Counted from the first letter of the stretch, positions 25,815 to 26,582 are shown. The stretch is 40,000 nt of DNA from Rhodococcus sp. BP22 (GCF_014281965.1 NZ_JACFTB010000006.1:140113-180112), one strand, 5' to 3'. The notes: generated from the letters alone by a model not told the origin. Numbers and translations are program-made.

Positions 25815-26582
25815 CTACCCCATGTCCTTGATTGAACGGCCGCGCGGGCTGGAGCCGGGCCGACCACCTGTCTTCTTCTTCGGCGACGGGGTCTCGGACT
25901 TTCGAGCCGCGCGCCGGGTGCCGACGACCGCCGCGACACCTTTTCGTGGACTCCTTCGAGGAGTCTCACGTTTCACTGCTGTCTTCGCCGTTGGTTTCTC
26001 AGCTGATGACATCCTCGGCGCCGCCCGGAATGAGTCTTCAGACCGCACCTTTGACTGGCCAGTCACCTGTACCACCTGCGAGTCGAACAGGTTCAGCTGG
26101 TCGTGATACAACGAGTCACACGCCACCCTCTCGATCGCCAGCCCCTCCGTTTCGATCACGTACGTATCCTCACCGCTGTCGTTCAGATATGCGTAGAGGC
26201 GTTCGGGCTCGACTGAAGCCGAGAACACCTGTTCGCAATGACATCCGTTGAACGGGCTCGGCGCGAACCGCTCCGCTTTTTCCTTGATGCTCGTCCATGA
26301 CATGCCAAACTTCTGAGACTCCACACAGCCTCGGTACAGCGTCATACCCTCAGTGGGGCGTAACGATCGATGCCCATTACTGATGTAACCAGTTCTTCCG
26401 AACAGCTCGACCCAATGACGTTTCTCCATCACCATCTCGGGGAAGTCGAACATTCCCCACGCGTCGTGCAGCGCCAGCGCAAGGTCAAAAAGATCCTCAA
26501 AGCTTCCTAGCCGAAAGGGTGGGTATCTACCTCTCGGTGAGTATCGGTGGAGCTTCGACAAAGCAGCTAAGGCAATCGGCAT
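25815..26582 (-). CDS. Putative ADP-ribosyltransferase-like protein (R-S-ExE motif set) with a basic Lys/Pro/Arg, AT-hook-like C-terminal tail
   Basis: The candidate motifs are LFGRTGY or TLYRG (Arg), FGMSWTSIKEKAERFA (an STS-like strand plus A..FA helix) and YVIETEGL (E-x-E). The tail is AEKPTAKTAVKRETPRRSPRK...PKKKTGGRPGSSPRGR. The start is uncertain (26582 or Met44 at 26453) because the 5' end overlaps the integrase remnant on the other strand. Confidence 0.35.
   Translation of the reverse strand: MPIALAALSKLHRYSPRGRYPPFRLGSFEDLFDLALALHDAWGMFDFPEMVMEKRHWVELFGRTGYISNGHRSLRPTEGMTLYRGCVESQKFGMSWTSIKEKAERFAPSPFNGCHCEQVFSASVEPERLYAYLNDSGEDTYVIETEGLAIERVACDSLYHDQLNLFDSQVVQVTGQSKVRSEDSFRAAPRMSSAEKPTAKTAVKRETPRRSPRKGVAAVVGTRRAARKSETPSPKKKTGGRPGSSPRGRSIKDMG

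Follow-up and report, generated by a model that had tools for sequence, protein, structure and literature searches.

ORF255 of Rhodococcus sp. BP22, a probable relic of a mobile-element protein family with ADP-ribosyltransferase-like motifs

The open reading frame described here (ORF255, 255 codons from ATG to TAG) lies at the edge of a genomic island in Rhodococcus sp. BP22. We consider it, with a probability of about two in three, to be a decayed relic of an integrative element that was organized as int / HTH -> X -> primase and sat at a tRNA-Leu gene; the relic is beheaded at its 5' end and degenerate in its E-x-E motif. The window, which is the whole stretch of DNA analyzed, covers 40,000 nt, and the positions of its features are given in Table 1. 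The frame was found on the minus strand where the first-pass annotation had placed it, and all of the peptides quoted there occur in its translation. ORF255 consists of a short non-family stretch that includes the ATG, a family-derived core and a long C-terminal extension. The codon-usage score of the core is +0.16, the best of the six frames and comparable with the +0.20 of mcrC, which argues for the coding nature of this part. The core is acidic (pI 4.75), and in an AlphaFold2 model built on a 16-sequence alignment it was predicted with a pLDDT of 86-98 in the order of two helices, β1, β2, a helix, β3/β4, a loop, β5 and β6.

Table 1. Positions of ORF255, its parts and the surrounding island features in the window
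Feature	Position	Strand	Basis or remark
GIY-YIG protein	9380-9985		island cargo
IS3-type transposase	10203-11054		island cargo
Second, full-length XerC-like integrase	11589-12626		island cargo
mcrB	22314-24203	+	left of ORF255, convergent
mcrC	24200-25288	+	left of ORF255, convergent
Hairpin, perfect 16-bp stem, 17-nt loop	25529-25577		repeat search; between convergent mcrC and ORF255
ORF255, 255 codons	25815-26582	-	ATG to TAG
C-terminal extension, residues 158-255 and stop	25815-26111	-	predicted helix 159-173, then disordered basic tail
Family-derived core, residues 28-157	26112-26501	-	homology, conservation, AlphaFold2, codon score
Non-family codons 1-27, including ATG	26502-26582	-	antisense of integrase remnant
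Tyrosine-integrase remnant, last ~107 of ~451 residues (H-x-x-R, His, Tyr region)	26503-26830	+	Pfam, NCBIfam, tblastn
tRNA-Leu(UAA), integration target	26863-26938	-	ARAGORN

The core belongs to a large, uncurated family that is restricted to mobile elements and phages of actinobacteria. Scans of ORF255 with Pfam, NCBIfam and PADLOC gave no family match, and a word-indexed search returned a single relative, P0002, a protein of 188 aa on a phage-like contig that is 44% identical to residues 37-155 of ORF255 (pairwise E = 2e-31). A profile search with the alignment of these two sequences did not confirm any relative among viral or genome contigs. The profile of their shared core of ~120 residues was run against 1.84 billion representatives of clusters (50% identity), of which 1,618 matched at E<=1e-3, 530 of them at E<=1e-10. 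The members are mostly 160-250 aa long and carry the domain, of ~115 aa, at the C-terminal end; the match of ORF255 to the family profile is significant. Pfam, NCBIfam and PADLOC scans of the relatives named no family, none of the 65 sampled members had a Pfam match, and a literature search found no description of the family. All tested members matched phrog_4776, whose function is unassigned, over the β core with E-values of 1e-6 to 7e-18, and the ORF255 and P0002 profile did so at E 1.2e-6.

Homologues were also found by tblastn in 34 mycobacteriophage records, namely Corndog gp82 and its relatives, all annotated as hypothetical; only P0036 reached these Corndog-like phages as a query, and the ORF255 core and P0002 found nothing in the phage records. 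The phrog_4776 proteins, Corndog gp82 of the cluster-O-type phages and a protein of Gordonia phage Octobien14 are true homologues of the β core that keep R, S-W-T and E..E but differ in the N-terminal region; their annotations read hypothetical or unknown function throughout. The Corndog-type genes lie in the early or replication region of the phage, near Ku-like and sliding-clamp genes and not by an integrase. In Corndog itself, gp82 (L035, 49596-50321) is found between the sliding-clamp-like gp84, the Ku-like gp87 and the DUF6197 protein gp81, and has a 4-residue insertion within the E-x-E loop. Two proteins of ~300 aa, P0036 (L007, 10001-10906) and P0151 (L034, 4677-5588), hold two ART-like β cores in tandem; the N-terminal one lacks the helical bundle, and the one after it is complete. 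Members occurred in 2 of 36 congeners and, in a class-wide sample of 400 genomes, in 3, a sporadic distribution that is expected of mobile-element cargo. One further match, in genome G040, was discarded as a false positive inside a TetR gene.

Conservation was counted over 168 aligned domains, and the co-occurrence of motifs was counted over the 159 complete rows. The first-pass annotation had read ORF255 as an ADP-ribosyltransferase (ART) of the R-S-E clade, and motifs of this R/S/E kind are indeed conserved among the homologues, with R, S/T, E and E kept together in 150 of the 159 rows, ORF255 itself reading E-D-T at the last of these motifs. Of the two arginines that had been put forward, Arg84 in the L-Y-R-G sequence falls on a highly conserved column (165/168) and on the predicted strand 80-86, which corresponds to β1; Arg63 is no longer a candidate, as the family has A, L or R at this position. 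The proposed STS-like strand and A..FA helix proved to be a family signature, formed by S95-W96-T97 on strand 95-97 and A103..F106-A107 in the region of the subsequent helix 100-106, and the motif is S-x-T rather than S-T-S, 11 residues after Arg84. Trp96 is present in 166 rows, position 97 is T or S in 165, and Ala103, Phe106 and Ala107 are kept in 163, 133 and 147 rows, respectively. Position 95 is Ser in 128 rows and Ala in 37.

The third motif had been assigned to Glu144 and Glu146, and this assignment has to be given up. The conserved E-x-E of the family is located at 138-140, directly ahead of an aromatic-V-V-D strand, and Glu144 and Glu146 are positioned further along or beyond β5, where position 144 is D, N or E and position 146 is variable. 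The alignment at 138-140 is anchored by Y141-V142-I143 and leaves no other plausible register. Glu138 is conserved in 159 of the 168 rows; position 140 is Glu in 154 and Gln in 5. In the loop ahead of β5, ORF255 reads E138-D139-T140, with the second Glu replaced by Thr. In R-S-E ADP-ribosyltransferases the second Glu of the motif is the catalytic residue, and with Thr140 at this position ORF255 lacks it. As one other member has Thr and four have Gln here, position 140 is tolerant of some change. The product of ORF255, if made, would most likely not be an active ADP-ribosyltransferase.

The N-terminal region departs from the family as well. Family homology starts at about residue 28 of ORF255, and on the opposite strand residues 341-447 of a congener integrase of 451 aa align to the remnant with 65% identity (tblastn). 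Considering that the integrase homology runs from 26503, at residue 341 of 451, codons 1-27 of ORF255 are antisense integrase; their codon score is -0.26 in the frame of ORF255 versus +0.12 in that of the integrase. No integrase-like sequence was found upstream of the remnant in any plus-strand frame. The fragment covers only the last quarter of integrase profiles: the Pfam Phage_integrase match is limited to profile positions 129-169 of 172, and the NCBIfam XerC/XerD matches to the C-terminal part. ORF255 had been described as inserted where the integrase N-terminus should be. An integrase fragment does abut it on the opposite strand, but the wording is imprecise, because both genes lack their 5' parts at a junction near 26500.

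The extent of the loss was estimated from the family. The members have a median of 73 residues ahead of the equivalent of Trp42. In ORF255 there are 41, just ~14 of which derive from the family, and it has lost about 50-60 N-terminal family residues. The model of a canonical full-length member, P0158 (pLDDT 91, pTM 0.85), places the helices H9-17, H25-35, H40-49, H55-68 and H78-87 as a bundle ahead of the β core; of these N-terminal helices ORF255 retains the last two only. As such, the full-length architecture of the family, with an N-terminal helical bundle of ~70 aa and a short C-terminus, is not that of ORF255. Residues 17-22 of ORF255 (GR...P) resemble the GRN..P found in the N-terminal region of the family, and we rejected this likeness as a chance match and not homology, since the stretch is antisense to the 65%-identical integrase.

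The gene order around intact relatives offers an explanation for the junction. At L033, int on the minus strand and an HTH_17 gene (72 aa) are followed by the family gene and a Prim-Pol/DUF3987 gene, with stops and starts overlapping. L031 and L032 have the order of an RHH-like protein of 75 aa, the family gene, a Zn_ribbon_DnaG gene and a D5_N primase-helicase gene, and at L030 the family gene stands between genes for an RHH-like protein of 80 aa and a protein of 102 aa. In the congener locus L005 the family gene adjoins a primase-like gene and a gene for a serine recombinase, and at L007 a D5_N protein is encoded 6 kb downstream. Overlaps between gene starts and stops are seen at L031, L032 and L005 too. 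Four loci have a small gene upstream that extends into the start of the family gene and encodes the HTH_17 protein (L033), the RHH-like proteins (L030 and L031) or a 144-aa protein (L010). An RHH or HTH gene in this position is compatible with a regulator or an antitoxin. The search for a partner gene at homologous loci, which the first-pass annotation had suggested, found no conserved partner, because the upstream proteins of different loci show no homology to one another. The two RHH-like proteins (L030, 972-1214; L031, 3063-3290), of 75-80 aa, share 40% identity, and neither has a Pfam match; their genes extend 4 nt into the family gene, which is reminiscent of antitoxin-toxin pairs.

According to this comparison, the parent gene of ORF255 would have belonged to a small integrative element once inserted at tRNA-Leu. 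Its product would have been one of the family's proteins of ~180-200 aa, with an N-terminal helical bundle and a β core of ~90 residues that carries Y-R-G, S-W-T with its helix, and E-x-E. The intact elements have an early operon diverging from int that consists of a small HTH/RHH gene, the family gene and a primase/helicase gene. Since int and the family gene are divergent in these elements, with the small DNA-binding gene between them, and are divergent in the window too, one deletion would account for the junction at about 26500. We infer that this deletion took ~1 kb of int (its first ~340 codons) and ~150-180 nt of the family gene (its first ~50-60 codons), together with the intergenic control region and the small gene that lay between the two. 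The leftover frame would then be open by chance through the antisense integrase to an ATG, and at its 3' end would continue into 98 unrelated basic codons. Neither the small upstream gene nor the primase of the intact elements remains in the window.

The surroundings place ORF255 at a tRNA-borne island. The 3' end of the tRNA-Leu gene (26863-26894) is directly repeated at 6574-6605 over 32 nt with 1 mismatch, where 0 such repeats are expected by chance. This repeat delimits an island of ~20.3 kb, so ORF255 lies at its tRNA-proximal edge. The cargo is a mosaic which, besides the genes in Table 1, includes those for a DUF6642 protein, a DUF732 protein, a PD-(D/E)XK nuclease and McrBC. The McrB homologue has ~330 residues without a recognized domain before its AAA_5 domain (Pfam, residues 366-525). 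The immediate neighbors of ORF255 are McrC, a 55-aa ORF between mcrC and ORF255, the integrase fragment and the tRNA. The hairpin in the same interval was not called by the terminator scan because it is without a T-run; it may be a small repeated element, and a related 37-nt stretch is present twice in the congener G023. In agreement with the first-pass annotation, no antitoxin, macrodomain or ARH gene was identified in the window by ORF calls and Pfam.

The C-terminal extension does not resemble anything in the family. Its richness in Lys, Arg, Pro, Ser and Thr had been noticed before and extends over the last ~98 residues, with a pI of 11.5 and a net charge of +15. In the AlphaFold2 model it shows one weak helix followed by predicted disorder, with a pLDDT below 50 from residue 177. 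The tail had also been called AT-hook-like, and here the details disagree: it reads KKKTGGRPGSSPRGRS, in which GGRPG and PRGRS are present instead of the canonical R-G-R-P core, and Pfam AT_hook had no match in ORF255 at E<=1. The extension after the domain has a median length of 6 aa in the family, compared with 98 in ORF255, and more than 35 residues follow the domain in only ~10 of 162 members, none of them similar to the ORF255 tail. No relative of the tail was found in a set of 5.8 billion proteins and no paralogue in its own genome, and the DNA of 25290-26110 gave nothing beyond the hairpin in 46 congeners. When all neighbor ORFs of the homologous loci were searched by tblastn against 24800-26700, the matches outside the core were at chance level, and no remnant of a primase or another neighbor gene was found in the tail or in the DNA downstream of ORF255. 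The codon score of the tail is about zero (-0.03). The tail is most simply read as an extension added by read-through or fusion while the gene decayed, and it may also be a newly evolved nucleic-acid-binding segment. We estimate that 98 extra codons would be free of stops by chance in DNA of 60% GC in a few per cent of cases, which counts against reading ORF255 as a relic.

The open frame leads to a different explanation, in which ORF255 would be a functional, non-catalytic new protein: a truncated ART-like domain that may bind NAD+ or a partner, fused to a new basic, disordered, nucleic-acid-binding tail and expressed from a promoter in the integrase remnant. The frame is uninterrupted, the core is modeled confidently despite its truncation, and the tail is strongly basic and its frame still marginally the best of six. 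An SD-like GAGGGA is located 11 nt upstream of the ATG, so that translation of ORF255 is conceivable. However, no promoter-like site was found in 25200-27000, the orphan tail has no conservation, ORF255 is without the N-terminal helices that are packed against the core in the P0158 model, and no relative shares the architecture of ORF255. Weighing both sides, we regard such a new protein as unlikely, and a relic gene remains our preferred reading of ORF255.

An active R-S-E toxin, guided to DNA by an AT-hook-like tail and comparable with pierisin/Scabin or DarT, appears far less likely still. It would draw on the retained Arg84 and Ser95/Thr97, on structure searches topped by ART-superfamily folds, on the basic tail, and on KptA/Tpt1, the closest folds of the canonical member, which act on nucleic acids. 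Against this stand the Thr at the catalytic position together with the unconserved pair Glu144/Glu146, the truncated N-terminus, a tail without the RGRP core, and the lack of any DarT, ADPrib_exo_Tox or AT_hook profile match and of an adjacent antitoxin, macrodomain or ARH gene. The likeness of ORF255 to DarT and pierisin/Scabin is only a general one, an ART-like core combined with nucleic-acid affinity through a basic tail; no DarT (DUF4433, PF14487) or other ART profile matched ORF255 in Pfam, no DarG-like macrodomain gene lies nearby, and the tail is an orphan. The earlier comparison with these DNA-targeting enzymes is not supported for ORF255, given its lost second Glu, its truncated N-terminus with a start in antisense integrase, and a tail that is unique among 162 members.

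At the level of the family, the question is whether the core adopts an ART fold, and we compared the models with the PDB using Foldseek. The ORF255 model had no significant match (best E 0.4), and 11 of its top 50 matches are ART folds, namely CNFy D4, Vis, CT-A1, LT-IIb, Plx2a, PARP14 and Tse6. In the case of P0158, the top 24 matches are KptA/Tpt1 or ParT except at ranks 16 and 21-23, at E-values of 0.046-0.5 and probabilities of at most 0.84; Tse6 and an insecticidal ART domain rank further down, and TM values were about 0.2-0.3 across both models. The two models thus retrieved mostly ART-superfamily folds, as the first-pass annotation would predict, but no PDB match was significant, the best E being 0.046. 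In BFVD, the Octobien14 homologue was matched at E 5e-6, and a mycobacteriophage protein annotated as an ADP-ribosyltransferase was matched at E 0.011 with a probability of 0.84. Sequence-based comparisons were less favorable. Profiles of 2 and of 65 sequences retrieved nothing relevant in sequence searches of the PDB, and hmmscan gave no ADPrib_exo_Tox (PF03496) match at E<=1 for ORF255 or at E<=0.1 for 65 relatives. When the family was aligned by hhalign with six ADPrib_exo_Tox domains from actinobacterial genomes, the probability was 0.14%, and the sole aligned stretch pairs the two E-x-E motifs.

Compared with R-S-E clade ARTs (PF03496; C3/iota/Alt-like), the family has the same motif order on the same predicted elements: an aromatic-Arg-Gly on β1, a Ser-x-Thr on β2 followed by a helix, and a Glu-x-Glu at the start of β5. 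In contrast, there is no significant profile similarity, the spacing from R to S is 11 residues instead of the about 40 of classical toxins, and in ORF255 Thr replaces the second Glu. KptA/Tpt1 and ParT of the ParST system, the best structural matches of P0158, are minimal ART folds of a similar size (~160-180 aa), although these matches are not significant (E 0.046-0.5 and probability up to 0.84 for KptA/Tpt1, probability 0.77 for ParT, TM about 0.3). KptA carries an R-H-R-R tetrad. This tetrad is not conserved in the family, and no conserved ParS-like partner gene stands beside its members.

These observations leave room for a family that is not an ART at all, that is, some other small α/β domain of a replication or regulation module, such as a primase accessory or a DNA-binding factor, with convergent motifs; ORF255 would then still be a relic. 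The failure of ART profiles in Pfam, NCBIfam and the PDB sequence searches points in this direction, as do the hhalign probability, Foldseek E-values that are all at least 0.046 with TM of about 0.3, the short R to S spacing, Ala in place of Ser95 in 37 of 168 rows, and genes that stand consistently beside primase genes. However, ART-superfamily folds predominate in the independent searches with two different models, and the three motifs sit on β1, on β2 with its helix and at the start of β5, as they do in ARTs. We consider a non-ART family improbable, slightly more so than the functional new protein discussed above. An ART-superfamily fold is quite probable, and a minimal ADP-ribosyltransferase-superfamily domain is the most likely identity of the family. 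The R-S-E reading of the first-pass annotation is thus plausible for the family as a whole, with motifs in 150 of 159 rows and two models in its favor, but lacks significant support from fold or profile comparison. A true NAD+-dependent transferase activity of the family has somewhat less than an even chance. More tentatively, the family may be an unrecognized minimal R-S-E ART clade in the early operons of actinobacterial integrative elements and phages, where it might modify a host, helper-phage or replication target, with ORF255 as a derivative; the KptA-like fold suggests that the modified target is possibly a nucleic acid.

Taken all together, ORF255 itself would be an example of the decay of a tRNA-borne island, in which a single deletion took away the 5' parts of two divergent genes. 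The family behind it is of more interest than ORF255, as it is large, is covered by no Pfam, NCBIfam or PADLOC model, and carries a three-motif ART signature on the right predicted elements. If a canonical member uses NAD+, the family would represent an additional ART clade, linked with the module for excision and replication in integrative elements, and a function would be given to a gene that is annotated as hypothetical in 34 mycobacteriophage records.
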